58,303 nucleotides of DNA from a virus (taxonomy: Duplodnaviria > Caudoviricetes), in IMG/VR virus record IMGVR_UViG_3300003324_000049, positions 1 through 58,303 of that record; one strand, 5' to 3'. Position 1 is the first letter of the stretch, and each line of letters begins with the position of its first letter. Both the position numbers and the translations under genes were made by a program. Under the pieces are notes generated by a model, which searched no databases, was not told the origin of the DNA, and saw only the letters and a program-made list of their open reading frames with translations. Shown here piece after piece: positions 6,838 to 49,108 of the stretch.

Positions 6838-6895
6838 GATTTTATCCTTTCAAGATAGACAGGGTGTCCATTATAGGACACGTTAAATTTGCGAC

Positions 6896-7354
6896 TTAGT
6901 CACGAAGGTGTTCGTAACCGTTCGGGACATGCGAGTGGATATTTGCCGCAATGGATGCTGTAGTGGGCGGGGCAGTCAACCTCTCTCGAATTTCAGCAAG
7001 TTGAGGATCTTCAGAACCTTCCGACTGATCACACTTGTCGAAGAGTTCCCGACCCTCCTCCTCAACAATTGCACGAAGAAGTAGAAGGTAGTTGATGTGA
7101 TCCGTGATCTTCTCATTCCAAGTATCAAACGAGGCAAGATTTTCCGCATCACACAGGTCATATACCGATACTGTGTGCTTGAGCATCATTCCTGAAAGAG
7201 CCTGACGAGGAGTCTGACCACGAAGCCCGGCAGCTTTCTTGAAGCTTTCGAGCTTATCGCCTTCCGGATTGTAGTGCTCATTCTTGTCACGAAGCATGTC
7301 GAGCGAACGCTGAACCTGCTCCGTAACTACTGAGGTGAACTGCTTTGAATCCAT
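6896..7354 (-). CDS. DUF1599-like (nucleotide-modification-associated) protein
   Basis: KN.HY...F......M.KH...W.EKITDHINYLLLL pattern. Confidence 0.6.
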   Translation of the reverse strand: MDSKQFTSVVTEQVQRSLDMLRDKNEHYNPEGDKLESFKKAAGLRGQTPRQALSGMMLKHTVSVYDLCDAENLASFDTWNEKITDHINYLLLLRAIVEEEGRELFDKCDQSEGSEDPQLAEIRERLTAPPTTASIAANIHSHVPNGYEHLRD

Positions 7355-7360
7355 ATTTCC

Positions 7361-8122
7361 TTATCCGAATCGGTTGTAATCGCGAATTGGGTTCTTCCAG
7401 TAGTCGATAACGACACAAGGTCGTCCATCTGCTGTGAGGACTGCTGAGTACCGAACTTCCAACTTGTTGTCGTGAGTCCATCCAACTTCATCCCCAACAA
7501 CACTCCCAGGAACAGACAAACGATTAAAGAAATCGTTAAGAGAAGCGTAGTCTTGTCCATAAATCTGTTCGTTGATGTCGTTGACTGCACTTCGGACCGA
7601 TTCATAATCGGACTCAAAGTAAGTCTTGGTGTAGTTGTCGAGAAAGAGCGAGCGGCCACCACCAGTCACAATGACTGAACTTTCGGATACCGGGTTCCTA
7701 CGCACGACATCCTGCATGACTTCGTCGTGGATCTTCGTCTCTTTCTTTTCGCCAAGTTGCTCAACAACCTTTTCACGATATTCCTTGAAGGCATATTCGC
7801 TGAGGCCTACGGCACTGGCAAGTGCAGCACTACGCTTAGTGCTCACAGTGTTCGCTCCAATAATGCAAGCGATGGTGGAGGCTCCAGTAACAGCCGCCGG
7901 GATATAGTGCTTGTATGTGAGCCGAACCTTTTCGACGAGAGTTATTTCGTCAGTCTGTTCGGACTGCGCATGGAGGATATCTTGGTGTGCCTTAGGCGCA
8001 GCCTTTCCTACGAGCACCGCAGTCGTGACTACACCAACAACAGCCACAGCCGTGAGGATAGCCGGAGAGTTGTCAGAGACAAGTTTCCGTGCCACCCCAG
8101 CATAGCGAGTGAGTCGTATCAT
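7361..8122 (-). CDS. DUF6353-like membrane-associated phage protein
   Basis: NSPAILTAVAVVGVVTTAVL; ASLNDF...VGW; paralog of 2740..3714. Confidence 0.7.
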   Translation of the reverse strand: MIRLTRYAGVARKLVSDNSPAILTAVAVVGVVTTAVLVGKAAPKAHQDILHAQSEQTDEITLVEKVRLTYKHYIPAAVTGASTIACIIGANTVSTKRSAALASAVGLSEYAFKEYREKVVEQLGEKKETKIHDEVMQDVVRRNPVSESSVIVTGGGRSLFLDNYTKTYFESDYESVRSAVNDINEQIYGQDYASLNDFFNRLSVPGSVVGDEVGWTHDNKLEVRYSAVLTADGRPCVVIDYWKNPIRDYNRFG

Positions 8123-8149
8123 CAGTTTGGTTTAACCTTTCAAGAGTCA

Positions 8150-8233
8150 AAAAAATAATGAGAAGATGTAGTCTCTCTCTACTCGGACCCAGAACATTCC
8201 CTAGTAGCGGGCGATGATGGGGGTCTTCTTCTC
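8150..8233 (-). ncRNA. Putative small structured RNA cassette 1
   Basis: Promoter motif at 8234-8258, no ORF; GAGAAGA/TCTTCTC closing stem, internal GACCC/GGGTC and GTAG/CTAC stems, T-tract. Confidence 0.6.
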
Positions 8234-8267
8234 ATTATAATCTTTGTTATTTTTGCGATAGGCAAAA

Positions 8268-8331
8268 CAAAAAATGAGAGTGATTGTATTGCTACAATCT
8301 CTTCGATACTATTGCTAGTATGTACTCTCTC
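8268..8331 (-). ncRNA. Putative small structured RNA cassette 2 (two GCAA tetraloops)
   Basis: Promoter motif at 8332-8356; GAGAGT/ACTCTC closing stem; TACTA-GCAA-TAGTA and GATTGTA-GCAA-TACAATC hairpins; T-tract. Confidence 0.7.
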
Positions 8332-8380
8332 ATTATAAGCCATGTTATTTCTGCGATTGGCCAGAAAAGTGGGCAGATGC

Positions 8381-8579
8381 AAAAAATATAAGGCTTGCAT
8401 CTCAAAGTGCTTGTCCCATAATTGGTTACGCAGAATGCAATGAATCACTTTTGCTATCGGTGATACCTTAAATAGAGAAGAGCCGTGACGCGAATGTCAC
8501 TCTAACTAGGTGGACCTGACAGGGAGCTGAAATCACGTCAACGGGGACGTCGGAGATCAGACCGTCAGGGGTTCTTCTC
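8381..8579 (-). ncRNA. Putative structured RNA cassette 3 (two domains)
   Basis: Promoter motif at 8580-8604, no RBS; domain 1 has GAGAAGAACC/GGCTCTTCTC, CCTGAC/GTCAGG, ACGTC/GACGT and GTGAC/GTCAC stems; domain 2 has AAGG/CCTT, ATCAC/GTGAT and TTGCAT/ATGCAA; T-tract. Confidence 0.6.
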
Positions 8580-8650
8580 ATTATAAGCTATGTTGTTTTT
8601 GCGACAGGCAAAAAATAAGAGACCGTGTTAGGGTCTCCTATTTTGAGGAT

Positions 8651-8872
8651 TTAGTTCTTTACGAGTTTGTTACGGATCAAGCTAAAGATGGTCTGCGGTT
8701 CATCGAATTCTTCAATGAGCGACGGGTACTTCTCGATCAAGCGTTCCATCCACTTCTCACCATTCAGCGCGAGTACGGCTGAGAGCGAGAGGGACAGAAC
8801 AGCTCCAATCAGGAAGGAGTTCGCTTCAATGAACTGGCCGATGATGGACAGAACAGCAAAGATGGTTTCCAT
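8651..8872 (-). CDS. Cassette small membrane protein
   Basis: RBS GAAAGGA, hydrophobic N-terminal half. Confidence 0.75.
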   Translation of the reverse strand: METIFAVLSIIGQFIEANSFLIGAVLSLSLSAVLALNGEKWMERLIEKYPSLIEEFDEPQTIFSLIRNKLVKN

Positions 8873-8967
8873 AATAGGTTCCTTTCAGAGGGGGTTCATT
8901 CTCATAATAACCTATGTAGAACCTGCGAACAAAAAATGAGAAGCCGTGTTAGGGCTTCCCATTTGGG

Positions 8968-9204
8968 TTAGTCTTCCAGTTCTTTCTTGGAGCGGTTTTC
9001 AATTCCAGTCATAGCGGCGAACTTCGCTGTGTCGAGAGCGGCGGAGGCGGCGAGGACGGTGAGGGCTCCAACGGCAACGTACTTGACGACAGTCTTCGAG
9101 ATTTCGAGGATGTCTTCTTTGGTTATCGAGGGAGTCACATCGACCATGCCGTCTTCCGTGCGGTCCTTCTTCAGGCGGATTTCGAGCTTGTGGTTCTTGA
9201 ACAT
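8968..9204 (-). CDS. Cassette small membrane protein (MFKNHKL...)
   Basis: Start reassigned to the ATG after GAAAGGA; one TM segment. Confidence 0.75.
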   Translation of the reverse strand: MFKNHKLEIRLKKDRTEDGMVDVTPSITKEDILEISKTVVKYVAVGALTVLAASAALDTAKFAAMTGIENRSKKELED

Positions 9205-9294
9205 GATGTTCCTTTCATAGTGGGTTAACTTCTCATTAAAGGCCATGTAGAACCTGCGAAAAATGAAAGGCCGTGTTAGGGCCTCCCATTTTGA

Positions 9295-9576
9295 TTATTC
9301 CTTCTTGAGCATATCTATGGCGGTTTGCATCGCGTCATTCATCTCTGCCGAATATTCGGTGAGTGACGTAACGGTAACCTTCATCTCAACAAGAGTCTTG
9401 AGGGTCAGCTCTGTCAACTCAATAGTGGCTTCCCTATTCGGTAGTTCGAATTCTTCGGGAAGAGCTTTGAGTGTGGCAAGAGCTTCAACATAAGTCTTGA
9501 TGAGAAGGTCTGCGTTTGACGTCATCTCATGTACTTTCGACATGAAGATGAGTTCGGGCGATTCAACGTTATCCAT
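9295..9576 (-). CDS. Cassette helical/coiled-coil protein
   Basis: RBS GAAAGGA. Confidence 0.75.
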   Translation of the reverse strand: MDNVESPELIFMSKVHEMTSNADLLIKTYVEALATLKALPEEFELPNREATIELTELTLKTLVEMKVTVTSLTEYSAEMNDAMQTAIDMLKKE

Positions 9577-9668
9577 TGTATTTCCTTTCGTAGGGGGTTC
9601 TCATTATAAGGCGTGTAAATCCTACGAAAAAATGAGAAGCCGTGTTAGGGCTTCCCATTTTGAAGTGG

Positions 9669-9872
9669 TTAGTATCGTGCGCGCTGTTTCTGTTCGCGAC
9701 GCTGGACTTCCTTCCTCCAGGTCTTCGCATTGCGTGCTTCGGTAGTGCTCGATATGATCTTGGCAACTGCAAGTGCAGCGGCTGAGAGCACACCGATCGT
9801 TTCCAAAGGACGTTCTTCGAAGGCCTGCAAGAGGCGAGCCTTAGCGTTCTCGTACGTCTTCTTGGCGTTCAT
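9669..9872 (-). CDS. Cassette small membrane protein (MNAKK...)
   Basis: Start after RBS; one hydrophobic segment and a basic tail. Confidence 0.75.
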   Translation of the reverse strand: MNAKKTYENAKARLLQAFEERPLETIGVLSAAALAVAKIISSTTEARNAKTWRKEVQRREQKQRARY

Positions 9873-9960
9873 GATATTCCTTTCATAGGGGGTCTTCATT
9901 ATAAGGAGTGTAGAACTTGCGAAAAATTAGAAGGCCGTGTTAGGGCCTCCTAATTAGGAG

Positions 9961-10209
9961 TTAGTCCTTTTCAGGATCGGGGACAACTTTGAGGTTCTTC
10001 TTGTTCTTGCGAGCTTTCGTGTACTCAAAGACAGCCGTTCCAACCAAATCGCCCAATTTGGCAGTTCCGAGGATGACGCCAACGCAGATAAGTCCGACGG
10101 TGGCACCAACCGCGTAAGAGACAAATTGTTCTTTGGGGGTGTACTTGGGCTGAATGTAGTTCACGACGATTTTGTCGCTGTTTTCAATCAGTTCTTCGAT
10201 GCAATCCAT
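9961..10209 (-). CDS. Cassette small membrane protein (MDCIEE...)
   Basis: Start after RBS; TM segment. Confidence 0.75.
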   Translation of the reverse strand: MDCIEELIENSDKIVVNYIQPKYTPKEQFVSYAVGATVGLICVGVILGTAKLGDLVGTAVFEYTKARKNKKNLKVVPDPEKD

Positions 10210-10303
10210 GATATTTCCTTTCATAGGGGGTTACTTCTTCATTATAAGACATGTAATTTTTGCGAAAAACTAGAAAACCTTGTAGGGTCTTCTAGTCTGA
10301 GAT

Positions 10304-10609
10304 TTAATCAGTTTCTGATGCTAGTTTACGCAAATCTTCAACGTATTGATTCCAGGCTTCCGGCTGCAGCTCCTGCCACGCCATGTATCGCGCATATAGC
10401 ATTCGGCGGAGCGGGTCGATTTCGGGATGTATTATAGCAAGGTATTTCCGAGCTTTTCTAGTTTCATCTCTCAATTTTCGATCTGCACGAAGGGCTTCTA
10501 ACGGATTTGTGATAAGCGGGGTGTAGCTGAGTATGGCTTTGTCTAGGGGACCAATCTCATTCTTGAGGAATTTAAATGCGTTAACAAAAGTTTTAACAGT
10601 TTTAAACAT
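10304..10609 (-). CDS. Cassette hypothetical protein
   Basis: RBS GAAAGGA. Confidence 0.75.
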   Translation of the reverse strand: MFKTVKTFVNAFKFLKNEIGPLDKAILSYTPLITNPLEALRADRKLRDETRKARKYLAIIHPEIDPLRRMLYARYMAWQELQPEAWNQYVEDLRKLASETD

Positions 10610-10688
10610 GATTTCCTTTCATAGGGGTTCTCACTATAAGGGATGTAAATCTGGCGAAAAAAAAGAAGGGCTTGTTAGGCCCTCCTCT

Positions 10689-10844
10689 TTAGTACCGGTT
10701 ATCGTACCGGCGGTCGTAGCGAGGGTGTTCGCAACGATTGTTTCGACGCATTTCGCGAATGAAAATCCAGATGAGCCAGATTCCACCCGTCAGACCTACA
10801 AGGATGAGGTCGAGGATGAAATTCCAGAATCCATATTTCTTCAT
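10689..10844 (-). CDS. Cassette small membrane protein (MKKYGFWNF...)
   Basis: TM hairpin ILDLILVGLTGGIWLIWIF. Confidence 0.75.
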   Translation of the reverse strand: MKKYGFWNFILDLILVGLTGGIWLIWIFIREMRRNNRCEHPRYDRRYDNRY

Positions 10845-10942
10845 GATATGTGTGTTCCTTTCGTTTTGGGGGGTTCTCATTATAGGACGTGTAATTCTTG
10901 CGAAAACAAAAAATAAGAGGCCGTGTAGGCCCCTTATTATGA

Positions 10943-11203
10943 TTACTTTTTCAGGTCTTTAATGAGCATTTCGAACTTGTAGTCTTCATGGGCATCTTCG
11001 TTGACGTGACGCTGTTCTTCTCGTGTCAGATGCGACAGGGCGTGATCGTAGGCACGGTTGAGCACTCGATTCTTCCGTCGGCAGTTAGCCAACTTGAATT
11101 CGAGATCTCTACGTTCCTGATCGATCTTTCCGATCGCGTACAGAGCACTAAAGATTGCGAATACGGCACCAAGAGTCTTGAGGACGATCTTAAAGCTGTT
11201 CAT
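10943..11203 (-). CDS. Cassette membrane-anchored protein (MNSFK...)
   Basis: Start after RBS; N-terminal TM segment. Confidence 0.75.
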   Translation of the reverse strand: MNSFKIVLKTLGAVFAIFSALYAIGKIDQERRDLEFKLANCRRKNRVLNRAYDHALSHLTREEQRHVNEDAHEDYKFEMLIKDLKK

Positions 11204-11293
11204 TGTAGTTCCTTTCATAGTGGGTTCTCACTATAAGGGATGTAAAACTAGCGAAAAAATGAGAAGCCGTGTTCGGGCTTCCCATTCGAGGTA

Positions 11294-11488
11294 CTATTCA
11301 GTCAATTCAGGTGTCTTCTTCTTACCTTCGATTGCTGTGATGATGAAGTCGGATGCGAAGTGTGCAATTACGCTGGCAACTACACCAATAACAATCTTAT
11401 TGGTCATGAAGCGGGCGAGCTTGCGACTTGCACCAACGATTTCGTCGTCAGTAGCGTTTTCGAGTTCGGTAATGAGGGTAGTGGGCAT
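11294..11488 (-). CDS. Cassette small membrane protein (MPTTL...)
   Basis: Start after RBS; one hydrophobic segment. Confidence 0.75.
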   Translation of the reverse strand: MPTTLITELENATDDEIVGASRKLARFMTNKIVIGVVASVIAHFASDFIITAIEGKKKTPELTE

Positions 11489-11574
11489 GATGTTTCCTTT
11501 CATAGTGGGTTCTCATTATAAGACAAGTAATTTTCGCGAAAAATAAGAGACCGTGTTAGGGTCTCCTATTTTGA

Positions 11575-11829
11575 TTACTTCTTCCAGAATTGGAGGCGTT
11601 CCAACAATGGTTTCTTTTCCAGCTGCTTGAGTTCGGTCTCAATTATGGGTAGGTAGATATTACAGTGACGAATCAGATCGTCGAGCTGCCATTCAGCTTG
11701 AGTGTGGATGAATTCACCAATGGTGTTTGTAACATCCGCATCAAGATATTCTTTGAGGCGCTCGTTCTGAGTTTTACGTGTGTATCCAACATGCCATTTG
11801 AGGTCGCGGAGGGCGGCTTTGGGGTCCAT
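11575..11829 (-). CDS. Cassette hypothetical protein (MDPKA...)
   Basis: Start after RBS GAAAGGA. Confidence 0.75.
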   Translation of the reverse strand: MDPKAALRDLKWHVGYTRKTQNERLKEYLDADVTNTIGEFIHTQAEWQLDDLIRHCNIYLPIIETELKQLEKKPLLERLQFWKK

Positions 11830-11926
11830 TTTTAGGGTCCTTTCATAGGGGTTAGTTCTCACTATAGGACGTGTAATCCCCGCGAAAAAAAAAAGGAGGG
11901 CTTGTTAGGCTCTCCTCTTTTGGGTC

Positions 11927-12040
11927 TTACTGTGTAGCCATATGGGCAAATATCGCTAGGACTGTGACGACTAGGAGGTACATCTTTATTGTAAAGAGTT
12001 CTTCTCTATGATCGTGACAGAACATTTTGACTTTGTTCAT
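11927..12040 (-). CDS. Cassette micro-protein, 37 aa, one TM (MNKVKMFCHDH...)
   Basis: Manual translation; RBS GAAAGGA; lies between a promoter and a terminator. Confidence 0.7.
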   Translation of the reverse strand: MNKVKMFCHDHREELFTIKMYLLVVTVLAIFAHMATQ

Positions 12041-12119
12041 GGTTTCCTTTCGTAGGGTTCTCACTATAAGACGTGTAATCCCCGCGAAAAAAAGAAGAAG
12101 GGCTTGTTAGGCCCTCCTC

Positions 12120-12254
12120 TTAGTATACGAACCGATAACCATTCTCAGGTTGAATGTGATGACAGAGGGGTACACCAAAGACAATTGGCGCTGTGCAAGG
12201 TTTGATCTCATCAAGTTGCTTGTAGCACCAATCATCGATGTATTCGTGTTTCAT
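12120..12254 (-). CDS. Cassette micro-protein, 44 aa, Cys/His-containing (MKHEYIDDWC...)
   Basis: Manual translation; RBS GAAAGGA; lies between a promoter and a terminator. Confidence 0.7.
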   Translation of the reverse strand: MKHEYIDDWCYKQLDEIKPCTAPIVFGVPLCHHIQPENGYRFVY

Positions 12255-12343
12255 TTTGTTCCTTTCATAGTTGGTTCATTATAACCAACGTTATTCCTAC
12301 GAAAAAAAATGAGAATCCTTGTTAGGGATTCCCATTTGGGTTG

Positions 12344-12526
12344 TTACTCCTTTTCGGAGGGGACGGCATTCGCCAGCATTTCACGCTGGTTCATTTCATC
12401 TTTCACATCTTCCTTGAATTCCCGGATGGATTCGATTGCGGCTCCGGGGAGGGAGGCAATGACCTTGGGGACAAAGAGGACGGAAGCGATGGCACGAACG
12501 GGCTTGGAGTGCTTGGTGAGTGACAT
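12344..12526 (-). CDS. Cassette small protein (MSLTKHS...)
   Basis: Start after RBS. Confidence 0.72.
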   Translation of the reverse strand: MSLTKHSKPVRAIASVLFVPKVIASLPGAAIESIREFKEDVKDEMNQREMLANAVPSEKE

Positions 12527-12551: not shown

Positions 12552-12581
12552 TTCTCATTATAATACGTGTAATTTTTGCGA
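12552..12581 (-). promoter_or_regulatory. Representative cassette promoter TCGCAAAAATTACACGTATTATAATGAGAA
   Basis: More than 20 near-copies, e.g. near 6880, 8245, 8345, 8592, 8915, 9245, 9615, 9910, 10250, 10642, 10890, 11240, 11525, 11870, 12072, 12290, 12900, 13100, 13420, 13890, 44195 and 49095. Confidence 0.85.
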
Positions 12582-12859: not shown

Positions 12860-12952
12860 TTTAGTGTTCCTTTCTAGAGGGTTAATTCTCACTATAAGAC
12901 AGGTAATTTTCGCGAAAAAAAAGAGAATCCATGTTGGATTCTCCCTTGAGGG

Positions 12953-13060: not shown

Positions 13061-13152
13061 TTTAGTTCCTTTCAGAGGGGTTTCTTTCTCATTAAAAGGC
13101 ATGTAAAATGTGCGATGCAAAAATGAGAATCCATGTAGGATTCTCATCTTAG

Positions 13153-13856: not shown

Positions 13857-13913
13857 GAGGTCTCCTTTCAAGAGTCTTCATTATAATGCGTGTTTTATCC
13901 GCGAATCCGCTCA

Positions 13914-34023: not shown

Positions 34024-34446
34024 TCATTTTTTACCCATAGTGTCCGTAACTGCGAATTTGTCACCACGAAGAAGATGCAGATATTGTTTACCTGCGTCTT
34101 TATGCTTCGGGCTGAGATCGCTTACCTTAACACCCTGAAAGTGCTGAGCCATTTTCAGCTCCCACTTACGAGCCTTCTCATTGTATTTTGTGCTCTTGTA
34201 GGAGAGTCGCATACCCTTTCGGATCTTACGGAAATTTCCCCACTTCGAGCCCTTGTACTGAAGCTTGGCACCGCGTTTAGCAAGCTTACTGGCTTTCTTA
34301 TCCAGACGGATTGCTTTTTTAGAAGCACGAGCAAATGTCCGAGAGGCATTACCCCTTCGAACACCCCACTTCATTCCCTTAACGCCAATATGGGCAAGGA
34401 ACTCATCGACTTTATCAGGTTCGTCGACGTTTAAATCGTCGCTCAT
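34024..34446 (-). CDS. Basic protein with LAHxGVKGMKWG motif
   Basis: EFLAHIGVKGMKWGVRR; Lys/Arg-rich. Confidence 0.8.
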   Translation of the reverse strand: MSDDLNVDEPDKVDEFLAHIGVKGMKWGVRRGNASRTFARASKKAIRLDKKASKLAKRGAKLQYKGSKWGNFRKIRKGMRLSYKSTKYNEKARKWELKMAQHFQGVKVSDLSPKHKDAGKQYLHLLRGDKFAVTDTMGKK

Positions 34447-36212
34447 TCAAATGCCTCCTTATTGGCTTTGTATGCTATGTAGGCATCCATCATGGCGGCC
34501 ACATTGTCAATCTTCTGATCTTGACGTTTCTTCAAAAGTTTACGGTTACCATTGGTGTCTTCCATCGTAATGGCGTTACCCATAGCAAACTGCATAAGAA
34601 GTTGATCGAAGATGAGCATACGTTGCTCACTCAGCTGCTTCAGTTCACCAAGAGGAACAGATTCAGTTCGAGCACCCTGAGGAACTTTCTCAATTCCAAA
34701 AGGTCCATTGTCTTGCTCCCACCTACTTACAAATTCTTTAGCATTGTAAGGGTCGAAACCGAAAGCTCGAACATCGAAGCCATTCTTCTCAATGAAAGCA
34801 TCGAGGTCATCGTAGACAGCCATCATGTCGAGGACTGTGCCCTCAAGAACGTGAAGGCTACCCTCTTGAATAAACTCTTCATACTTTGCTCGAGCAGCTG
34901 CCGGAAGCTTCATATGAGTGTTTTGGGAGATGTAACTTCGGGTTATGATTCCGAATGTTCCATTAGGGCGAGGAAACATGAAAGTGAAGGCACAGAAGTC
35001 ATCACCCTGTGAAAGGTCGGCTCCCAAAGCACAAGGTAGTTGCCAGAAACGTGGTACACGCTTATGAGGCTCAGTCTCTTCGTAAGTGAAGAAGTACGTA
35101 TAGCCTTCCATGGGAATTCCGAAACGCTTAGCCAGGATATCGTTCCGTGATGAAGGTGAAGCTTCAATTCGTTCGACATCTCGCTGGTAAGTTTCATAGG
35201 TGACGGTCTGTCCGATGTTGGGTTGGGCCTTGGGCCACATCGCAGGTTCAGTGACTTCCTCCAATTCATCAAGCCGGTAGTGCCAGATTGAAATGTGAGG
35301 CATATCGAATTCGCCCTTGAGAATGCCAGCTAGTTCCATTTTGATAGTGTCACCACTACCGTTACGAACGGTACCCTCAGAGCTGATCGCCACAATCAGG
35401 TAGTCGTCCAATTTGGACGCACCCTGTTCAATAGCACCTACTACGTCTTCACGAACGTCCCCAGACAGCCATTCGTCAACTGTAGAGATCTTCGGACGAA
35501 GACCCTGCAGCTTGTCCACCTTCATTGGGCGAACCTCGAGTAGAGAACCCGTTAGGAAGTTCTCGATACCCTTCTTGGTCGAAGCGAGTTTGACTCGATT
35601 CATCTTGTTTCCCGTGGTGTTCTGAAGAGACCCCTCAGTGAGGAACTTGAACAATGGACCACGAGCGCGAGTAATCGCGGTTCTAAATGGAGACATCACT
35701 TCATCAGCCTGCTTCATGGTTGGAGCAGTTGTGATTTGGTGAGATGTAGAGGTGTCCACATTCAGAAAGTAGCTTTGGATGCACTCAGCATACATGGACT
35801 TGGCAGCACCACGAGCTACGATCAGATACTGCTTGACAGTAAGCCGCTTCTTAATAGTTTTCTGGACATAACGACCACCGTAGTTGTCAGGGGAGGGTTC
35901 GTAAACACTCCGCTCTACAAAGTAGTACCAACCGAAGATCTGTTCAGCCCAAAGTTTGAAGCTATCCAGAAGGTGGAGGTCTGTCCCGTCCGTTAGAGTG
36001 AGCTCATTCTCGCAATACTTGATGAAGCCGTTGATAGCCAAATCATCATAGTAGAAACGAGGGTCGGCGATGAGTGCGTCAATCCGATTCATCTCGGCAC
36101 TGATCTCTTTACATACGGGGATTTCTCCGTTGAGAACTCTCTCACGGAATCTCCCATAATAAATTGGTGTTGCAGTGTTAGACAGAGCCAAAGCCGACCC
36201 TCCTTTCATCAC
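34443..36212 (-). CDS. terL: Terminase large subunit
   Basis: Walker A VARGAAKS, Walker B STVDE, nuclease GADLS, FDPY and KIDNVAAMMDA. Confidence 0.93.
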   Translation of the reverse strand: MMKGGSALALSNTATPIYYGRFRERVLNGEIPVCKEISAEMNRIDALIADPRFYYDDLAINGFIKYCENELTLTDGTDLHLLDSFKLWAEQIFGWYYFVERSVYEPSPDNYGGRYVQKTIKKRLTVKQYLIVARGAAKSMYAECIQSYFLNVDTSTSHQITTAPTMKQADEVMSPFRTAITRARGPLFKFLTEGSLQNTTGNKMNRVKLASTKKGIENFLTGSLLEVRPMKVDKLQGLRPKISTVDEWLSGDVREDVVGAIEQGASKLDDYLIVAISSEGTVRNGSGDTIKMELAGILKGEFDMPHISIWHYRLDELEEVTEPAMWPKAQPNIGQTVTYETYQRDVERIEASPSSRNDILAKRFGIPMEGYTYFFTYEETEPHKRVPRFWQLPCALGADLSQGDDFCAFTFMFPRPNGTFGIITRSYISQNTHMKLPAAARAKYEEFIQEGSLHVLEGTVLDMMAVYDDLDAFIEKNGFDVRAFGFDPYNAKEFVSRWEQDNGPFGIEKVPQGARTESVPLGELKQLSEQRMLIFDQLLMQFAMGNAITMEDTNGNRKLLKKRQDQKIDNVAAMMDAYIAYKANKEAFE

Positions 36213-36730
36213 TAGAGTTTTACTGTAGTTTGTGCACGAGGCGTGAACTTTACAGTTGGTCGAGCAGACCCGCCAGATGCCTTAGAGATAGCTGCTTCGA
36301 TGGCCATTTGCGCACCAACTTTAGCAGCTTCTTTACCGGCGGTCTTAGCAGCGTCTTTCAGACCTTCTTTAAGGGCGTTCTCAATCTTCTGATTGAGATA
36401 CGTCTTTGCTTGCTTCCGACTGACGTCGCCAACATCTTTGAGTAGAGCTGTAACGATCTTTTTACCGTTACTAATCTCAGGCTCAGTAAGTTTGAGGTAT
36501 TCCTTCTCAAGCTTAAGTCGATTGATTGCAGACTTCAGCTCATCGTCAGTCATCTTCTTGACATCTGGCTTCGCCGGTTTAGAGGTAGAGCCATCAGAAC
36601 CTTCAGAGTCTGATGAGGTTTGCTTTTTACGCTTACCCCACCGCATTCCTTTTACTCCAAAGTGAGCAAGCTCGTCCTCGTCCAGAATTACTCCGTGGTC
36701 ACCGAGGATGTCGCTAGCGCTTCTGCCCAT
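36212..36730 (-). CDS. Protein with LAHxGVKGMRWG motif
   Basis: DELAHFGVKGMRWGKRK; MTDDEL...INRL.LE helical repeat. Confidence 0.8.
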   Translation of the reverse strand: MGRSASDILGDHGVILDEDELAHFGVKGMRWGKRKKQTSSDSEGSDGSTSKPAKPDVKKMTDDELKSAINRLKLEKEYLKLTEPEISNGKKIVTALLKDVGDVSRKQAKTYLNQKIENALKEGLKDAAKTAGKEAAKVGAQMAIEAAISKASGGSARPTVKFTPRAQTTVKL

Positions 36731-39091: not shown

Positions 39092-39271
39092 TTATAGACC
39101 GTTGATTTGTGGAATTGTCTCCACGTATCCAGGACAGTCGAAATGTGGTTCATGACCGATAGTCAAACCACAAAACGGATCTTCCTGAACAGGTTCTGGG
39201 GTTTCTTGACTTGCTTCTTCGGCCGCGGCTGCTTTTTCAGCAATCATTGCGTGTGTTTCAAGCGTGCACAC
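39092..39271 (-). CDS. Small protein, 59 aa, with CG-x4-H-x2-H...CPGY motif
   Basis: Manual translation from GTG after GGGGG RBS. Confidence 0.55.
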   Translation of the reverse strand: MCTLETHAMIAEKAAAAEEASQETPEPVQEDPFCGLTIGHEPHFDCPGYVETIPQINGL

Positions 39272-39305
39272 AGTGTTACCCCCGATAGTAATGATGTTTA
39301 TGATG

Positions 39306-39911
39306 ACAAAGTTGCTAAAACAGACAAAAGTAAAGAATACATGTTCGCAACTTTGTAGAATTCGGCAAAAGTAAAGAATCTATGTAGGAACTCTATGATA
39401 GAACGTTAGATCTCGAACGTTTACAACCGCACGAAGTCACAAACGCCTCTTGAAAGGAGTGTAGGGTAGATGAAGTCCTACTTTTATTGTGAGATCTAAC
39501 GCTCTATCACAGAGTCCCTACATAGTATGAGGGAACTTTGGACCTAGTATGGTGACTGTATACTCATACTTCTTACCCTCAGAAGGAATGCCAGATTTGC
39601 GCGTCGGCAGGGAACGATCATGTCGTAGAAAACCATTAAGTCCGGTGAGACCTGGAATTCCATCTAAAGGTAAGGGGTTTACATGTATAGCTTGAAGAGG
39701 GCTTAGGTTCTCTGACGTTGCCCAACGTACTGACTAGGCGGAGAGTCGTCCCGGAATCGACACCTAGGAGATCAACTAAACCCTCATCAAGTCATACATG
39801 TATAGTGTTGTGGGCGTCGATTCGTCCGGATTTCTCAGCTCTCATGGGGGAAGAGCACGGCCCCAGCCACAGACATTTAAGCTACCTCGGCAGATAGCCC
39901 CACAACTACTA
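39306..39911 (-). ncRNA. Tract of six near-abutting long stem-loops; putative structured RNA or precursor
   Basis: Inverted repeats 39306-39315/39347-39356, 39380-39414/39491-39525, 39524-39531/39563-39570, 39572-39594/39652-39674, 39680-39706/39776-39802 and ~39803-39815/39897-39911; many mismatches become G-U pairs on the minus strand. Confidence 0.7.
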
Positions 39912-43846: not shown

Positions 43847-44126
43847 TGAGTACAACCTCTTTGTTTTCCGGGTATATGACTGACGAGAATGACATTCGAT
43901 CAAACTGTTCGATGTACCATTCTTGGTTGGGGCGGAAGGGCGCTTGGGCATCACGCTTGGCTTCCAGTATTGCCCAACGGTCATTGAACAAAATTAGAAG
44001 GTCTGGAATCCCTTGTTGCTCATTAGCGTCTAGCTTGATAATGAAGCAGCCAGGAAACAACCTTCGTAACTCTTTCTTGAGACCAGCTTGAAAGTCGGAC
44101 TCGAGCTTAGACTTAGCTTTTGCCAT
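43749..44126 (-). CDS. VRR-NUC domain nuclease (Holliday junction resolvase-like)
   Basis: E..FQ, GIPDL, LEAK and PNQ motifs. Confidence 0.85.
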   Translation of the reverse strand: MAKAKSKLESDFQAGLKKELRRLFPGCFIIKLDANEQQGIPDLLILFNDRWAILEAKRDAQAPFRPNQEWYIEQFDRMSFSSVIYPENKEVVLNALQQAFSSRRKARAVQRKQVPLDQLRQRPAA

Positions 44127-44204
44127 AGACTCTCCTGTTACGAAAAATGAAAGGCGCTGTATAGTACAGACATCTTACTCCTTCTATTATAATCCATGTA
44201 TTCC

Positions 44205-44592
44205 TTACGTGGGCAATGGCGGAAAACCCAGACTTGTGGCCACTTGGCCAGAAAACCCACTTAAAACCCAAAACTCTTTATATATACCCTTTTTTACTTC
44301 GATTAAAAGTTTTAAGAAAAAAGTGGGCAAAGTGGCCAACTATGGACGTTTCGTCCAAGTGTGTGGGCACTTTTACGCTAAAAGCGAACAAAACAAGCAA
44401 ATTCAAGCCAAAAACGGCTCAATTTTTTCCGCCATTGCCCACGCAAGCACTAAAAATCAATTTTTCGTCTGGCCACTTATTTTGGCCAAAGTGGGCAGAT
44501 TGGCCACTTTTCTGGCCAGAAATTCAAAACTTGGGTGGAAAGTGCCCACAAAATTTTTCAATAAGTGGGCAGCTGGCCAATTACTGGCCACT
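44205..44592. repeat. AT-rich non-coding region with iterated GTGGGCA/TGGCCA motifs; candidate replication origin
   Basis: More than 12 copies in both orientations among A/T tracts; no credible ORF. Confidence 0.6.
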
Positions 44593-44929
44593 AGATTTTG
44601 TCTAGTTCCACCTTGAAGTGCATACTACTAGGTCCGTAAGAGATAAGTTTGCCCTGTCGCTCGAGCTTCCGAAGTTTAGCCAATAGCAGTTTTTCTGGAA
44701 TAGGTTCAAGTACTTCCGCAATCTCATAGAAGTTCGCGAGCTTCTTCTTGCGATAGTGTAGTGACTTTGCGGGCATCGCTTCATCAGCAAGACTAAAGAT
44801 TGTATGTCTGCCAATCCCAGAAGCTCCAGGCCAGACTGTCCACAGGTTCTGAAGAAAGAAAACTGTCTCGAGTACAACAATGTCCGGGATGTGCTTTAGC
44901 TGTAGTTTAGTCGGTGAACTCTTACCCAT
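44591..44929 (-). CDS. Hypothetical protein
   Basis: PEKLLLAKLRKLE..G winged-helix-like motif; abuts the upstream gene. Confidence 0.65.
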   Translation of the reverse strand: MGKSSPTKLQLKHIPDIVVLETVFFLQNLWTVWPGASGIGRHTIFSLADEAMPAKSLHYRKKKLANFYEIAEVLEPIPEKLLLAKLRKLERQGKLISYGPSSMHFKVELDKI

Positions 44930-45166
44930 CTACAATCCTACTTTCTTCGTTAAAAGCATAATCTCCCAGGTTAGCTTTTTATCCACCATACCTGAGTAGT
45001 CCGGGAAAAACTTTTTCATTGTCCGGTGGCTAACTCCGAACGTCTTCGCAATTTGGGCAAGCGGCCATTCGTCTTCCATGCAGGCCCGAAGCCGCTCAGT
45101 CAATTCCTCACTGAGCGGCCCCCGATCTGCGACAGTCCTACGTTCGATCATTGGGTTCGTCGACAC
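44930..45166 (-). CDS. HTH DNA-binding protein
   Basis: WPLAQIAKTFGVSHRTMKKFFP. Confidence 0.75.
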   Translation of the reverse strand: MSTNPMIERRTVADRGPLSEELTERLRACMEDEWPLAQIAKTFGVSHRTMKKFFPDYSGMVDKKLTWEIMLLTKKVGL

Positions 45167-45404
45167 GACTCAATATCCAGAGGACAGTGTATTTACGGAC
45201 GTTATACCAAAGTTCGTAGAATGGCCACACCATTACTAGAAGCCAAGAGACCCAACCTGCAGTCTTATAAGAGTCTTCCTTGTTATAGCTGTAAGGAAAG
45301 TCTTTCTTTATCCATGCATCGATTCGCTTGAAGTAGACGGGCAATCTACTTATACCCACGATCCAGTATCCGATGAAGATAAGCCATCCTGCTAGTTCAC
45401 CCAT
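45138..45404 (-). CDS. Two-TM membrane protein
   Basis: Two hydrophobic Trp-rich segments. Confidence 0.65.
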   Translation of the reverse strand: MGELAGWLIFIGYWIVGISRLPVYFKRIDAWIKKDFPYSYNKEDSYKTAGWVSWLLVMVWPFYELWYNVRKYTVLWILSRVDEPNDRT

Positions 45405-45721
45405 TATGCCACCTTCTTAACGTACACTGCATCCCGCTTCTCCGGAAAGGCACTCAAGTATTGTTCGTGAACAAACACTTCGGTGTTCCATCCATTCCGA
45501 TGAATCAAAACTTTGTTCCCCTCGATAGTGTGGCGTTGCGGAATGATACGCTTCGTCGATATATACCGCACTAACAGAGTGGCCGAGACCTCGTAGCCTG
45601 GGAACTTCGGGATTGGGCGCCACTCTAAATTGTTGCTCACTTGCTGCTTCCCCCACGTTAAGTAGTAGATCAAGTCGTTCAGGAGACCAAGCCTCAACGA
45701 TGTAGTTTTTGTGTGATTCAT
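45404..45721 (-). CDS. NUMOD4-like protein (true start probably downstream)
   Basis: EWRPIPKFPGYEVS. Confidence 0.6.
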   Translation of the reverse strand: MNHTKTTSLRLGLLNDLIYYLTWGKQQVSNNLEWRPIPKFPGYEVSATLLVRYISTKRIIPQRHTIEGNKVLIHRNGWNTEVFVHEQYLSAFPEKRDAVYVKKVA

Positions 45722-45787
45722 AAGTATCGGGCAGATGTACTTTCATCCACTCGACTTGGTTTTTTGTTAGGACTAGAGGGATAGGCT

Positions 45788-46051
45788 TCACAGCGCCATC
45801 TCTTCCTCGATGACGATGCCCCGACCCTGCTTAATTTTCTTAAGCGTATCCTCGGCTTCTCGGACCCTCTTCTCACAGTTGAAGGTTGTAGGCTTCCAGA
45901 CATGTTCCGGCAGTCTGATAGCCGTTACAGCGCCGCTCACACCCTTTAGAGAATCGACCCGTGTTGCGATCCGAATCGCCTTTGGGTCCAGGTTCTTCCG
46001 GAGTGCGTAGATCGATGCGTGCCGCTGGTTTCCAAACATCAGGTAGATCAT
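45788..46051 (-). CDS. Hypothetical protein (MIYLMFG...)
   Basis: RBS GAGGAG before the internal ATG; coupled to the upstream stop. Confidence 0.6.
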   Translation of the reverse strand: MIYLMFGNQRHASIYALRKNLDPKAIRIATRVDSLKGVSGAVTAIRLPEHVWKPTTFNCEKRVREAEDTLKKIKQGRGIVIEEEMAL

Positions 46052-46284
46052 CAAGCTCTCCTCATCAAGTGCATGTGAAGGTTCTCTTCTTTGATTGTGT
46101 GATACAAAGTTTCTGTAGTCCACACTTGGTTTCGTCCAGCGAGAACCCACTGATCTGTATCATTCTGCAAAGCTATCTGAATGGTAGGAAACTTATCCTC
46201 CCAGTCATGGATAGCAATCACATCACCCAGGACAAGAGATTTGAGGTCTTCCAAACTCTCAATCACTCCACGACGGATGGTCAC
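46051..46284 (-). CDS. Hypothetical protein
   Basis: Overlapping start/stop coupling. Confidence 0.6.
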   Translation of the reverse strand: MTIRRGVIESLEDLKSLVLGDVIAIHDWEDKFPTIQIALQNDTDQWVLAGRNQVWTTETLYHTIKEENLHMHLMRRA

Positions 46285-46505
46285 TTCTTGTTCTCCTTAT
46301 GAGCCTTCATGGCGTAGTAGATGAACTGGACGATGAGCCCGACCAGAAACATGTTTGGGAAGAATGGACTGAGTCCAAAGAACAGCAGTACCGATGTCAC
46401 CACTAGTCCCAGGAGTAACATAAGGGTTAGGAACCCCATAAGGGCGGACTTCTTCTCGGCCTCAGTCATCGGCTCATGTTTCTTACAACTGCACTGATCG
46501 GTCAC
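46281..46505 (-). CDS. Two-TM membrane protein
   Basis: Hydrophobic hairpin; GTGA coupling. Confidence 0.65.
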   Translation of the reverse strand: MTDQCSCKKHEPMTEAEKKSALMGFLTLMLLLGLVVTSVLLFFGLSPFFPNMFLVGLIVQFIYYAMKAHKENKK

Positions 46506-47200
46506 GCTGCGTCTGCTTTCGGGAATGTCGAATTGATTAGGAATTTGCGTTGGACTGCTACCACCTGCTTGCCCTTGCGGAGATGGTAGTAACGTCCTCT
46601 GTTATTACGGGAAATAGTTAGGAGCCGCCCAGTATTGATCTCCCGGACGGCTCCCTTCTTGTTTACTTCATAGAGAGGGAAGTTGTGGGCAACCCTCCAG
46701 ACCTTGTGACCGACCGTACTGCCGTCATCAGCCACTGCAGCTTCTTTTCGACGCTCTCTGGCCCTCTGGTTATGGCACTTACGACAATTCCGATACCCAC
46801 GCTTATCGATTAGCGTATTCTCTTCATTGTACTCATGGCCGCGCCTACAGTGAGATTTCTCCTCACGACCCTTAGGAGCTTCCACCACTTTGGGAGTGGG
46901 CTTCAGTTCCGGGAAGGCCAACCATACCAGTTTCTGCCAGGATCGGTTAGTCTGCCTACCGTCTGGTCGAACCAACTTGAAGTACCAAAGATCCGTACCC
47001 GGTCTCTGCGTTTCAAGCAGCAGGTAGCCGGATCGAAGGCTTCGAAGGTCGCCATCCTTAGTGATCTCGTAGTCGGGGAATTCCGGGATTCTCCGAAACT
47101 CTTCTTTACTGAGATCCCTACCGTCAGCAGTCTCTGTCTCTTTCCAGACAGTCCTCTTAACCTCTGTTGGCTGTGATGAAATTCTCACTTCTTGCTCCAC
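46502..47200 (-). CDS. Protein with two NUMOD4-like repeats and a Zn-finger (HC.RGH...R.CR.C)
   Basis: FRRIPEFPDYEIT..G, WRVAHNFPLYEVN..G and SHCRRGHEY...RNCRKC. Confidence 0.75.
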   Translation of the reverse strand: MEQEVRISSQPTEVKRTVWKETETADGRDLSKEEFRRIPEFPDYEITKDGDLRSLRSGYLLLETQRPGTDLWYFKLVRPDGRQTNRSWQKLVWLAFPELKPTPKVVEAPKGREEKSHCRRGHEYNEENTLIDKRGYRNCRKCHNQRARERRKEAAVADDGSTVGHKVWRVAHNFPLYEVNKKGAVREINTGRLLTISRNNRGRYYHLRKGKQVVAVQRKFLINSTFPKADAA

Positions 47201-47700
47201 ATCTGATCGGCAAGCTTCGGACCATCGATGTAGTAGTCCATGCCGTTGATTTTGATCTTGACATTGAACTTCAGCTGATCAATATCCCACCAGTTAGGTT
47301 CAAGGACTTTCTCTTTCCCCTTGATTCGAATAACACCTGTTTGGCTGATTTCGAATGCTCTGGTCGGACCAATTTCAAGATCTCGCCATTCAATCTCGAC
47401 GTTGTCTGTAGGTTCGAGTCCTACCTCTTCGTCTACAGACTCTTCGGTAACCCCGAGCAGTTCCTTCTCCCACTCGGCAAGAGGTTCCTGAATAGGGTCA
47501 TGTCGAAATACTTCCCTACTAATCACCCTAGCCATGTTTGACTTCAAAGCTGGATTGGATGGAAGAAAGAAATTGAGATCCACCTCCAGCGTCTCTCCAG
47601 TCATGAATCCGCTCTGGTCATAAATCGGCAAACGTACGTGCTTCAAATCAGTTCCCCAGCTCTTTCTGTTTCTGTTCAATTGCATCGCGGACTGCATCAT
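47185..47700 (-). CDS. Hypothetical protein with degenerate NUMOD4-like motif (start uncertain)
   Basis: IEWRDL...FEISQTGVIR. Confidence 0.55.
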   Translation of the reverse strand: MMQSAMQLNRNRKSWGTDLKHVRLPIYDQSGFMTGETLEVDLNFFLPSNPALKSNMARVISREVFRHDPIQEPLAEWEKELLGVTEESVDEEVGLEPTDNVEIEWRDLEIGPTRAFEISQTGVIRIKGKEKVLEPNWWDIDQLKFNVKIKINGMDYYIDGPKLADQMWSKK

Positions 47701-47730
47701 CGATTGATACCGCGGGTGTTTCGAAGTAGG

Positions 47731-47952
47731 TCAGATCACTTCCACTAACAGTTTGTAAATCTGTCCGCCGTACGGGTCTTGCATGATCGGGTCGACCACC
47801 CACGTCACTCCCGTTACCAGCCATGTCTTTCCGTCCTTCAGGTCGATGTTGTCGTTGATCCTCGGTGCAAAGGGCATCGGAAACTCGGCAAGCATACTTC
47901 CATCAACCGCATGGATCTCAACACGAATCATTTCTTGACCTTCGCATCCCAA
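47731..47952 (-). CDS. Hypothetical protein
   Basis: PR..D.I....W.V..V.W small beta-domain motif. Confidence 0.6.
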   Translation of the reverse strand: MGCEGQEMIRVEIHAVDGSMLAEFPMPFAPRINDNIDLKDGKTWLVTGVTWVVDPIMQDPYGGQIYKLLVEVI

Positions 47953-48073
47953 ATAATTTCGAAGTTGTCAGTTATCCATTCCTCACTCAGATGGCATTCA
48001 TCCCGAAGTTTCTCGAAAGCAGTCTGATTGATCTGCGCTACGAATGGACTTATCTCAACCAATTGTGATGGAA

Positions 48074-48310
48074 TCATCGCGTCGGGGTGTAGCGCATCGA
48101 GATGTCCGGGAAGGCAAGGTGGATTGCCATCTGAATAGTTATGTACGATCCATCATGCCTACGTATCTCATTTACATTGCAGTAGTCTTTACCGTCGATC
48201 TGTACGTCACCGTCACGACTTACTTTGAGACTGTCGGCGACTCCGGGAACTGATCGAAACTCGTAGTTACGTTCTTTAGTCATCTGAATTCTCCTTGGGC
48301 CATGCAGCAC
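48074..48310 (-). CDS. Hypothetical protein with degenerate NUMOD4-like motif
   Basis: EFRSVPG...VSRDG.V...IHLAFP. Confidence 0.55.
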   Translation of the reverse strand: MLHGPRRIQMTKERNYEFRSVPGVADSLKVSRDGDVQIDGKDYCNVNEIRRHDGSYITIQMAIHLAFPDISMRYTPTR

Positions 48311-48686
48311 TCATGATGCTGTCTAGTGAGATTGTGTGTTTCTGTCCGCTGATCCAGAAGTCAACGAACTCGCCCTCATTGGGCCGGAGCATGTACTTGT
48401 AGGGCTGTGAGGGAGCTTTGGTAGTGGTTCGACGTACCTGCCGGTTAGCGTTTACCTCGTACTCAGGAAACCCCGGGACAGGCCTCCAGTCGAGCTCCCG
48501 CTGTTCATTGCGTTCGATATCAGCCAACCGACCATAACCTTTCGCTCGAGCCATAATGGATGGTTTAGGTGTCATTACGTCCCCATCGAATCGCATCGCT
48601 CTGATCTTCAAGAGCTCGTTGAGCCTTCTCAATTTGAAATTGTTCCCACTCCTCTTGCTGAATTTCAACAGTCTCATCCATAGCAT
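48276..48686 (-). CDS. NUMOD4-like protein (start probably MTPKPS)
   Basis: DWRPVPGFPEYEVN. Confidence 0.65.
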   Translation of the reverse strand: MLWMRLLKFSKRSGNNFKLRRLNELLKIRAMRFDGDVMTPKPSIMARAKGYGRLADIERNEQRELDWRPVPGFPEYEVNANRQVRRTTTKAPSQPYKYMLRPNEGEFVDFWISGQKHTISLDSIMSAAWPKENSDD

Positions 48687-49023
48687 CTTTGATTAGACCT
48701 TCGATTGTTATCGGTCCAACCGGCTCCCACTCCTTCTTATCCTCATTCCAAGTAAGATCAGAGGTTGACCCGTACTCGTCCAGGAGATTGAGAGCCAGCT
48801 CCCATGCAACTTGCCAAGGAACGCAAGAGATCGTGAAGTTTTTGAAGAACTCATCGGCCTTGTCATTCTCAACAGCGTAGTCATCTGCACAATCACTGCA
48901 GTGAACGGCCAGTGTTGACCAAAAGGCATTACCCGCATTGTCGAGTTCTTTGGTGTAGTGACCCTCGGTCTCATCGATAATCGTGGTACCTACGGGAAGT
49001 TCGGAAGGCTTGAAGATAGTCAT
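48565..49023 (-). CDS. Acidic hypothetical protein (MTIFKP...)
   Basis: RBS GAAAGGAG before ATG 49023. Confidence 0.7.
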   Translation of the reverse strand: MTIFKPSELPVGTTIIDETEGHYTKELDNAGNAFWSTLAVHCSDCADDYAVENDKADEFFKNFTISCVPWQVAWELALNLLDEYGSTSDLTWNEDKKEWEPVGPITIEGLIKDAMDETVEIQQEEWEQFQIEKAQRALEDQSDAIRWGRNDT

Positions 49024-49049
49024 CTGTTTACTCCTTTCAAGAGTGAAAA

Positions 49050-49108
49050 AGATAAGAGACCTTGTTACGGGTCTCTTATCTCTCATTATAAACTGTGTAG
49101 ATCTTGCG
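49050..49108 (-). promoter_or_regulatory. Cassette-type promoter followed immediately by a terminator hairpin
   Basis: CGCAAGATCTACACAGTTTATAATGAGA, then AGATAAGAGACC-CGTAACAA-GGTCTCTTATCT and TTTT. Confidence 0.75.

Follow-up and report, generated by a model that had tools for sequence, protein, structure and literature searches.

A repeated promoter candidate in a tailed-phage genome and its possible reading by a predicted two-barrel RNA polymerase

Conserved promoter motifs that recur along a genome have been described in several phages. The Thermus phage P23-45 has two RNA polymerases of the two-barrel kind, each with its own conserved promoter motif, and transcripts of the virion enzyme end at a conserved 26-nucleotide (nt) motif that is missing from relatives without the enzyme (10.1101/2022.12.01.518664, in the portion of the text available). 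For YonO, the best-studied relative among single-chain enzymes, the accessible part of the report maps the start site and leaves the promoter undefined (PMC5467207). In T4-type phages, the available text on PeSL elements describes a hypervariable region in which each small early open reading frame (ORF) is bordered by a stem-loop fused to a promoter (PMC4122927). Nearer to the genome considered here, the cluster DJ Gordonia phages Vardy and Conley carry an intergenic motif (50 bp and 43 bp), with five copies in each genome (PMC9671010, PMC10868162, in the parts accessible). Here we analyse the virus record IMGVR_UViG_3300003324_000049, from a soil phage (58,303 bases; this whole stretch is called the window), in which a three-block element, TCGC...ACA...TATAAT followed by GAGA, recurs in front of genes, including those of an array of small genes.

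We lean towards reading this element as a phage-specific promoter recognised by the phage's own polymerase, a view that draws on comparison of sequences between related phages. Two parts of the picture were already known: the motif itself, from print on cluster DJ, and the in silico prediction that a protein of 915 residues is a polymerase, from the preprint that describes the supercluster (10.1101/842583, as far as its available text goes). The link between motif and polymerase, the upstream boxes, and the cross-phylum dialects of the motif are not in any paper found. Furthermore, none of the papers found by our literature search has transcripts of this phage supercluster mapped or any of its promoters defined.

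A strand-biased element placed before genes

The element is a genuine, strand-biased feature that stands before genes. Its exact pattern, TCGCR-N10-16-TATAATGAGA, occurs six times, always on the minus strand, which carries all genes of the window, and is absent from 100 shuffled versions. When TATAATGAGA is allowed up to one mismatch there are 21 matches, compared with 3.47 expected in shuffles (largest 10), and a matrix built from 16 copies in the window finds 22 sites above 8 bits, again all on the minus strand. An independent matrix, which avoids circularity, was made from 59 sites in nine relatives with the window excluded. Above 10 bits it returns 24 minus-strand sites and no plus-strand site, while first-order Markov simulations scored with it give 0.02 sites per strand and a top score of 12.2 bits. 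Twenty-two copies are robust by this measure, scoring 14.7 to 48.2 bits. Across ten genomes all 111 matches are confined to the coding strand, with a matrix that was built from those same genomes.

An earlier note, made from the letters of the window alone, had proposed more than 20 copies, and these numbers bear it out. The copies that it placed near 6869 and 49085 are real (6894, with hexamer 6875-6870, and 49109, with hexamer 49090-49085), and its remark that the structural genes lack the element agrees with the absence of any robust copy between 14,100 and 39,000. A third isolated copy that it placed near 44185 is doubtful. The site at 44210-44182 is degenerate, with ACGT for TCGC and AGAA for GAGA, and scores 11.7-12.1 bits against the simulated maximum of 12.2; it is one of two marginal sites at 11.7 bits in the chance range, the other lying inside the holin gene. 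The copies are given below with the ORF, in amino acids (aa), that follows each one; scores in bits refer to the relatives-only matrix, and 'terminator-fused' marks a copy that adjoins a terminator hairpin.

13876..13904, minus: TCGC..ACA..TATAAT GAAGA, upstream of a 94-aa ORF (13856-13572); 28.8 bits
13407..13435, minus: hexamer TTTTAT, position 2 not A, before a 74-aa ORF
13087..13115, minus: hexamer TTTAAT, adjoins terminator hairpin, before a 35-aa ORF
12887..12915, minus: TATAGT, terminator-fused, 79-aa ORF
12553..12581, minus: example copy of the earlier note, terminator-fused, 60-aa ORF
12274..12302, minus: weaker copy TCGT..ACG..TATAAT GAACC, terminator-fused, 44-aa ORF; 14.7 bits
12059..12087, minus: TATAGT, terminator-fused, 37-aa ORF
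11857..11885, minus: TATAGT, terminator-fused, 84-aa ORF
11511..11539, minus: terminator-fused, 64-aa ORF
11226..11254, minus: TATAGT, terminator-fused, 86-aa ORF
10875..10903, minus: top-scoring copy, terminator-fused, 51-aa ORF; 48.2 bits
10629..10657, minus: TATAGT, terminator-fused, 101-aa ORF
10237..10265, minus: terminator-fused, 82-aa ORF
9894..9922, minus: terminator-fused, 67-aa ORF
9599..9627, minus: TCGT variant, terminator-fused, 93-aa ORF
9231..9259, minus: hexamer TTTAAT, terminator-fused, 78-aa ORF
8900..8928, minus: hexamer TATTAT, terminator-fused, 73-aa ORF
8576..8604, minus: before about 220 nt without ribosome site or ORF (structured transcript)
8328..8356, minus: before a structured RNA of about 60 nt with a U-run at its end; immediately preceded by a GCCCACTT/TGGCCA element
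8230..8258, minus: followed by a closed structure and U-run, a ribosome site and the start of the right-arm gene 8122-7361
6866..6894, minus: TCGC..ACG..TATAAT GGACA, inside the right arm, before a 63-aa membrane-type ORF (6837-6646)
49081..49109, minus: ACGC..ACA..TATAAT GAGAG, then a 15-bp hairpin and U-run and a ribosome site, 152-aa ORF
44182..44210, minus: degenerate ACGT..ACA..TATAAT AGAA, upstream of the endonuclease-exonuclease-polymerase operon; chance-range score

The consensus in the 16-copy matrix is TTTTCGCaagaaTTACAtgtcTTATAATGAGAAc, with TCGC, AC(A), T.TA..T and GA invariant or nearly so. The spacing of the blocks is constant, namely CGC, 7 nt, ACA, 5 nt and the hexamer, followed by GAGA. 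Both the distance of 13 nt from TCGCAA to TATAAT and the conservation of the internal ACA and the downstream GAGA(A), as given in the earlier note, were recovered in this way. The reported lack of a TTGACA-like −35 box was also confirmed: none of the copies is among the sites of a TTGACA/16-18/TATAAT scan, which overall gave 11 sites against 9.6, and 12 against 19.2, in shuffles. The position 16-18 nt upstream is instead filled by the T-run of a terminator (TTTTCG, which has three of the six bases of a −35 box). There is no TG extension of the −10 hexamer either, as positions −15/−14 are not TG and −14 is C in 12 of the 16 copies.

Within the window, 19 of 22 hexamers have A at position 2 together with T at position 6 (TATAAT, TATAGT, TATTAT), and the other three have no A at position 2 (TTTAAT twice, TTTTAT once). 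A tally that was blind to the hexamer gave 85 matches in ten actinophage genomes; seven of them were set aside as chance, their hexamers not being composed of A and T and several lying on the wrong strand. The remaining 78 hexamers are TATAAT (49), TATAGT (12), TTTAAT (4), TATTAT (4), TTTTAT (2), TATAAC (2) and five single variants, and A is missing from position 2 in eight of the 78. Judged from its spacing and upstream letters, the motif does not appear to match the standard sigma-A promoter type.

The architecture in other phages and the candidate polymerase

The element extends well beyond the window, its exact pattern being present in at least 162 contig stretches of IMG/VR (chance estimate about 7). 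The closest named relatives of the window are Arthrobacter cluster AM phages, with 56% identity over the 915-residue protein, followed by phages of Streptomyces, Gordonia, Curtobacterium and Rhodococcus and, farther away, Faecalibacterium phage FP_oengus and Lactococcus phage 1706. Scored with the window matrix at a threshold of 15 bits, Arthrobacter phage Circum has 5 copies, Gordonia phage Kenosha has 9 and Streptomyces phage Rima has 11, every one of them on the coding strand.

The two most distant phages have dialects of their own. Phage 1706 has ten copies of CMCA-NN-TTTTACA-N5-TATAGT, compared with 0.12 expected, and the hexamer is TATAGT in all ten, the G being kept despite a genome of 33% G+C. 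In three of these copies the sole ribosome site lies no more than 10 nt past the hexamer, so that a start at the edge of the hexamer fits better than one 7 nt later, which would cut the ribosome site. FP_oengus has 12 copies of the pattern CGCG-N7-CA-N5-YTTTATG within 8.4 kb, compared with 0.28 expected, and two further exact copies elsewhere. Its hexamers are CTTTAT (11), CCTTAT (1), TTCTAT (1) and TTTTAT (1), with A at position 2 in none of the 14, which could not function as a sigma-70 −10 box for a Firmicute host.

Identical block lengths are found in phages of five host genera from two phyla, all of which encode a homologue of the polymerase. We regard this cross-host conservation of architecture as the strongest evidence in the analysis. 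Because the architecture is kept while the '−10' drifts away from the sigma consensus, the reader is more simply something that the phages share. The polymerase gene is present in 26 of 27 motif-bearing contigs of at least 40 kb and in all 17 with at least 90% completeness; the single motif-bearing contig without it is a fragment that is 69% complete, and the case that the earlier note had named against its own proposal, the motif in a phage lacking the gene, was not found among the contigs of at least 90% completeness.

The candidate reader is the 915-residue protein encoded at 43255-40508 on the minus strand, which belongs to a very large family: at least 8000 proteins in the database reach an E value of 1e-10 or lower. 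Its GADFDGD sequence, residues 515-521, is invariant in 44 of 44 aligned homologues. A structural model (mean predicted local distance difference test score, pLDDT, 76; predicted template modelling score, pTM, 0.54) was compared with known folds using Foldseek, where the best match was QDE-1 (E 2e-8), then gp62 and gp64 of P74, a phage of the P23-45 group (E 1e-6 to 2e-6). Further matches were plant RDR2, P23-45 gp96, the crAss-like virion polymerase and cellular beta-prime subunits. Template modelling scores are low, at 0.26-0.38, as expected for a multi-domain model. The fold search alone matched: neither the sequence nor a 44-sequence profile gave a relevant match against solved structures. 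The protein is a candidate for a single-chain two-barrel (double-psi beta-barrel) RNA polymerase with a DxDGD metal loop, on the basis of the model.

The same protein is the sole ORF with matches to helix-turn-helix (HTH) families among 72 non-structural ORFs scanned. Its C-terminal HTH lies at residues 877-909 (HTH_23, 27.7 bits against a cut-off of 24.6), the N-terminal one is weak, and homologues bear precomputed matches to Sigma70_r4 and r4_2. Two HTH modules in the protein and two boxes one helical turn apart in the DNA are a suggestive match.

The earlier note had proposed that the motif is read by a phage polymerase or phage factor and not by host sigma-A alone, and that a copy before the polymerase operon provides positive feedback. 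The first part is strengthened by comparative evidence, namely the missing −35 box and TG extension, the three atypical hexamers among 22, the spacing shared across phyla, and the CTTTAT dialect. The feedback part is weak, since the copy before the operon is the most degenerate of all and scores in the chance range; a site at this place was found in three of ten genomes, at 12-25 bits.

The 460-bp gap upstream of this operon is rich in two short sites. Nine of the 17 TGGCCA sites in the window and three of its six GCCCACTT sites lie in it (44237-44590), and one GCCCACTT...TGGCCA pair (8358-8374) directly adjoins the promoter copy at 8356. Circum has TGGCCA at the matching place. These clusters could be a replication origin or sites for a regulator.

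Cassettes, terminators and genome layout

The window spans an entire virus record, which has direct terminal repeats, and is a complete phage genome. It is circularly permuted, as indicated by the primase-polymerase gene, which is split across both ends (1-1077 and 55531-58302). In phage order the genome contains:

about 40240-39100, minus: left end, non-coding, first in phage order
38448-13914, minus: HNH endonuclease, large terminase, portal, protease-capsid fusion, tail genes and holin
13545-8130, minus: small genes arrayed as terminator-promoter-leader-small-ORF cassettes, with the lysis genes on one side and the replication arm on the other
8122-1, then 58302-43268, minus: replication arm
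43255-40508, minus: 915-aa DFDGD protein, then one last small gene

The array occupies what is described as the variable middle of such genomes (10.1101/842583; PMC5513430, in the text available). A hairpin of −9.7 to −18.5 kcal/mol with a T-run adjoins 16 of the 23 copies, and the T-run ends at the T of TCGC. Since hairpin and T-run pass directly into TCGC, terminator and promoter form one unit. A ribosome site and an ORF follow 19 of 22 copies at a distance of 22-61 nt; in 17 of these 19 the ORF has 35-101 aa and starts 22-34 nt past the hexamer. The cassettes have a short leader with the ribosome site GAAAGGA. By a crude test, 11 of the 19 downstream ORFs have a hydrophobic segment, in agreement with the arrays of 'small membrane protein' genes reported in clusters AM and AU (PMC5513430, PMC5679793, in the portions accessible). 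A leaderless start at the CTATGAAAGG ATG was considered and rejected: it lies 11 nt past the hexamer and is, by eye, in frame with the real start in some cassettes only.

Three copies (8604, 8356 and 8258) have no ORF within 140 nt. Their predicted transcripts fold closed, the 5' GAGA pairing with the 3' end, and in those of 8356 and 8258 a U-run follows directly after the closed structure (z-scores −1.7 to −2.9). At the gathering threshold Rfam gives no family in the window and ARAGORN finds no transfer RNA gene, so the three ORF-less transcripts belong to no curated family. At two places on the minus strand, 49087-49030 and 8236-8130, the order is promoter, terminator-like hairpin with U-run, and ribosome site; the stem after the 49109 copy is a perfect 15 bp with a z-score of −5.0. 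The hairpins and U-runs that follow 8258 and 49109 look like gates that need read-through to the downstream genes.

The terminators of the array (13160-8610, minus) have stereotyped loops, CCUAACACGG or CCUAACAAGC. AACA is present in the loop of 14 of 25 terminator-like hairpins on the coding strand, compared with none of the 31 found opposite. Circum shares these loops (5 of 12), as do two other relatives (5 of 23 in G006 and 3 of 24 in G013), and the terminators of FP_oengus have a stereotyped loop of their own, GAGAAAUC, eight times. The sequence of the loop should not affect ordinary intrinsic termination.

Several other features of the genome were recorded. The first gene after the array (7361-8122, minus) and another in the replication arm (2740-3714, minus) form a DUF6353 paralogue pair. 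A 228-aa protein (52513-53199, minus) has a Tad3 domain, an inhibitor of type I Thoeris (Pfam E 4.6e-31), and is likely to be an anti-defence gene by this domain match. Inspected by eye, the left end, which is non-coding, shows a long inverted repeat at about 39520-39380 and two copies each of CTATACATGTA and ATTCTTTACTTTTG (39100-39900, minus), all of them candidates for packaging or late-promoter signals.

How the sites may be read, and comparison with known systems

In the reading towards which we lean, the two-barrel polymerase would recognise double-stranded DNA at a pair of upstream boxes separated by one helical turn. When the hexamer is numbered as −10, CGC lies near −30 and (T)ACA lies near −20. 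Its fused HTH modules would probably contact both boxes, and the enzyme would melt the A+T-rich hexamer and start at or just past the invariant purine that follows (GAGA...). The promoter would then drive about 17 self-contained cassettes, each with a terminator hairpin, the promoter, a short leader and an ORF of 35-101 aa that often encodes a membrane protein, as well as three short non-coding transcripts and two or three points of entry into the replication arm.

A number of observations weigh against this reading, and many of them fit a possible but less probable alternative, in which host sigma-A reads the hexamer without a −35 box. The CGC and ACA boxes would then bind a phage-encoded regulator, perhaps with the phage enzyme also at work. 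This regulator would activate host transcription or, later, shut it off, and the HTH modules carried by the polymerase-like protein could play this part. Among the 78 actinophage copies, the hexamer agrees perfectly with the sigma-70 −10 consensus in 49 and is TATAGT in 12, followed by G. Actinobacterial sigma-A is reported to work often from a −10 box alone, so the host polymerase could fire these sites. The upstream box stands 13 nt from the hexamer, as does the MotA box in T4, and the cassettes end in an ordinary hairpin and U-run, a signal of bacterial polymerases, which closes 16 of 23 units. The authors of the Vardy and Conley reports read the cluster DJ motif as a sigma-70 −10 promoter (PMC9671010, PMC10868162, in the text available).

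Other difficulties concern the phage enzyme itself. Its HTH matches are generic and mostly under curated cut-offs, and our search of the literature found no transcript start, RNA data or biochemistry for the family; a search of sequencing runs gave DNA runs or runs of no stated type only. The motif-bearing contigs are all of one lineage, so co-occurrence with the polymerase gene may reflect common descent and is not independent evidence. The gene sits at the genome's far end, preceded at most by a degenerate copy. If the polymerase is made only after infection it could not launch its own expression, and either injection of the enzyme or reading of some sites by the host would be needed. A mixed form, with sites readable by both enzymes, is possible and would solve this start-up problem.

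What tells against sigma-A as the reader is the absence of a −35 box and of a TG extension, along with the hexamers themselves. Position 2 is not A in eight of 78 actinophage copies and is T or C in all 14 of FP_oengus, while phage 1706 keeps TATAGT in 10 of 10 copies at 33% G+C and, in three of them, a start 7 nt downstream would cut the sole ribosome site. Furthermore, the phage proteins that could redirect a host polymerase were looked for and not found: there is no MotA or AsiA homologue among 77 ORFs compared with PHROGs or 72 ORFs compared with Pfam. A phage sigma factor as the reader was likewise rejected, as no sigma family is present among the window ORFs scanned.

A fuller version of the polymerase reading, which we hold to be doubtful, would place the enzyme in the virion. 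The polymerase would be loaded into the head by an invariant N-terminal leader and injected with the DNA, and would carry out an early programme that does not depend on the host. It would fire the array, stop at terminators of its own (loops CCUAACAMGG), and gain access to the replication arm by way of the hairpin/U-run gates following 8258 and 49109. Several leads point in this direction. The homologue in phage 1706, orf75, is labelled 'structural protein' in the GenBank record alone, a label that presumably derives from virion mass spectrometry. In four relatives, small ORFs close to the left end are matched by residues 7-50 of the polymerase (E 2e-7 to 7e-5), and its leader is invariant at H13, G15 and S20-G28 (LxHxG...GRYPWGSG). 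Two terminase-flanking proteins (36212-36730 and 34024-34446, minus) share an N-terminal LAHxGVKGMxWG leader of Pfam family DUF7211 (mutual BLASTP E 6e-6), which the leader of the polymerase resembles by eye only; its first 50 residues have no Pfam match to DUF7211, and BLASTP of its first 60 residues against the window DUF7211 protein gives E 10.

It is very unlikely that the repeat is mainly a PeSL-like cassette boundary homogenised by recombination, with gene conversion and not polymerase recognition behind its conservation: the fusion of terminator and promoter in 16 of 23 copies, the stereotyped loops (AACA in 14 of 25 coding-strand hairpins against 0 of 31 opposite) and the variable middle position of the array (10.1101/842583; PMC5513430, in their accessible text) would suit it, but the same boxes and spacing are kept between genomes whose polymerases share just 42-56% identity and whose hosts come from two phyla, which gene conversion within a genome cannot explain, and isolated copies without a hairpin (6894, 13904, 49109) retain the boxes. 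Such recombination is compatible with promoter function and is an addition more than a true rival.

Together with its relatives, the window provides a candidate promoter some 30 bases long, in natural variants that span two phyla, for a very large family of two-barrel polymerases. If confirmed, recognition by the phage polymerase would explain how phages of low G+C content express genes in actinobacteria of high G+C content, and would account for a compact, portable terminator-promoter-leader cassette that is a potential tool for orthogonal expression. Should the injected form also prove true, siphoviruses of Actinobacteria and Firmicutes would share one self-sufficient transcription system, and the first promoter and terminator code for this polymerase family would be in hand.

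Among described elements, the repeat of Vardy and Conley is the same one: it is intergenic, contains TATAAT and lies in the central small-gene region, and the DJ phage Kenosha has 9-10 copies by matrix. As far as their available text goes, those accounts treat it as a sigma-70 signal that possibly regulates expression and do not discuss the upstream boxes, the conservation across phyla or a link to the polymerase. The PeSL elements are similar in that a stem-loop is fused to a promoter beside small ORFs, as in 16 of 23 copies here. However, PeSL promoters are host sigma-70 early promoters, unlike the array promoter if it is read by the phage polymerase.

In T4 middle promoters the MotA box at −30 replaces the −35 box about 13 nt upstream of the −10 box, and the sigma factor is appropriated. 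The element described here likewise does without a −35 box and pairs a good −10-like hexamer with a different box, also conserved, about 13 nt farther upstream, but it differs in having a second box at −20, in a genome where neither MotA nor AsiA was found among the scanned ORFs, and in that the hexamer of the Faecalibacterium relative is not sigma-like. There is also a likeness to the late promoters of T7, which have one long motif, an A+T-rich stretch before a purine-rich start, and a place on the coding strand only. The core of the Rima and Kenosha copies, CTATAGTGAGACC, is a single base away from the T7 class III promoter around its start, and the core in Rima, CTATAG-GAGACC, appears to resemble the class III core. 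The polymerase here is of the two-barrel kind, unlike that of T7, and since no T7-type polymerase is encoded (none among 77 ORFs scanned) the resemblance is probably due to chance.

The closest parallel is with P23-45. The window differs in having one polymerase gene with fused HTH modules, and the parallel drawn here is one of arrangement and not of motif sequence. In both cases, as far as the accessible text on P23-45 goes, a single-chain two-barrel polymerase (there the virion enzyme gp96 and the non-virion enzyme gp64) goes together with a conserved motif before many short early units. The presence of the motif follows the presence of the polymerase among relatives in both, and enzymes of the P23-45 group are among the best fold matches to the polymerase candidate of the window.

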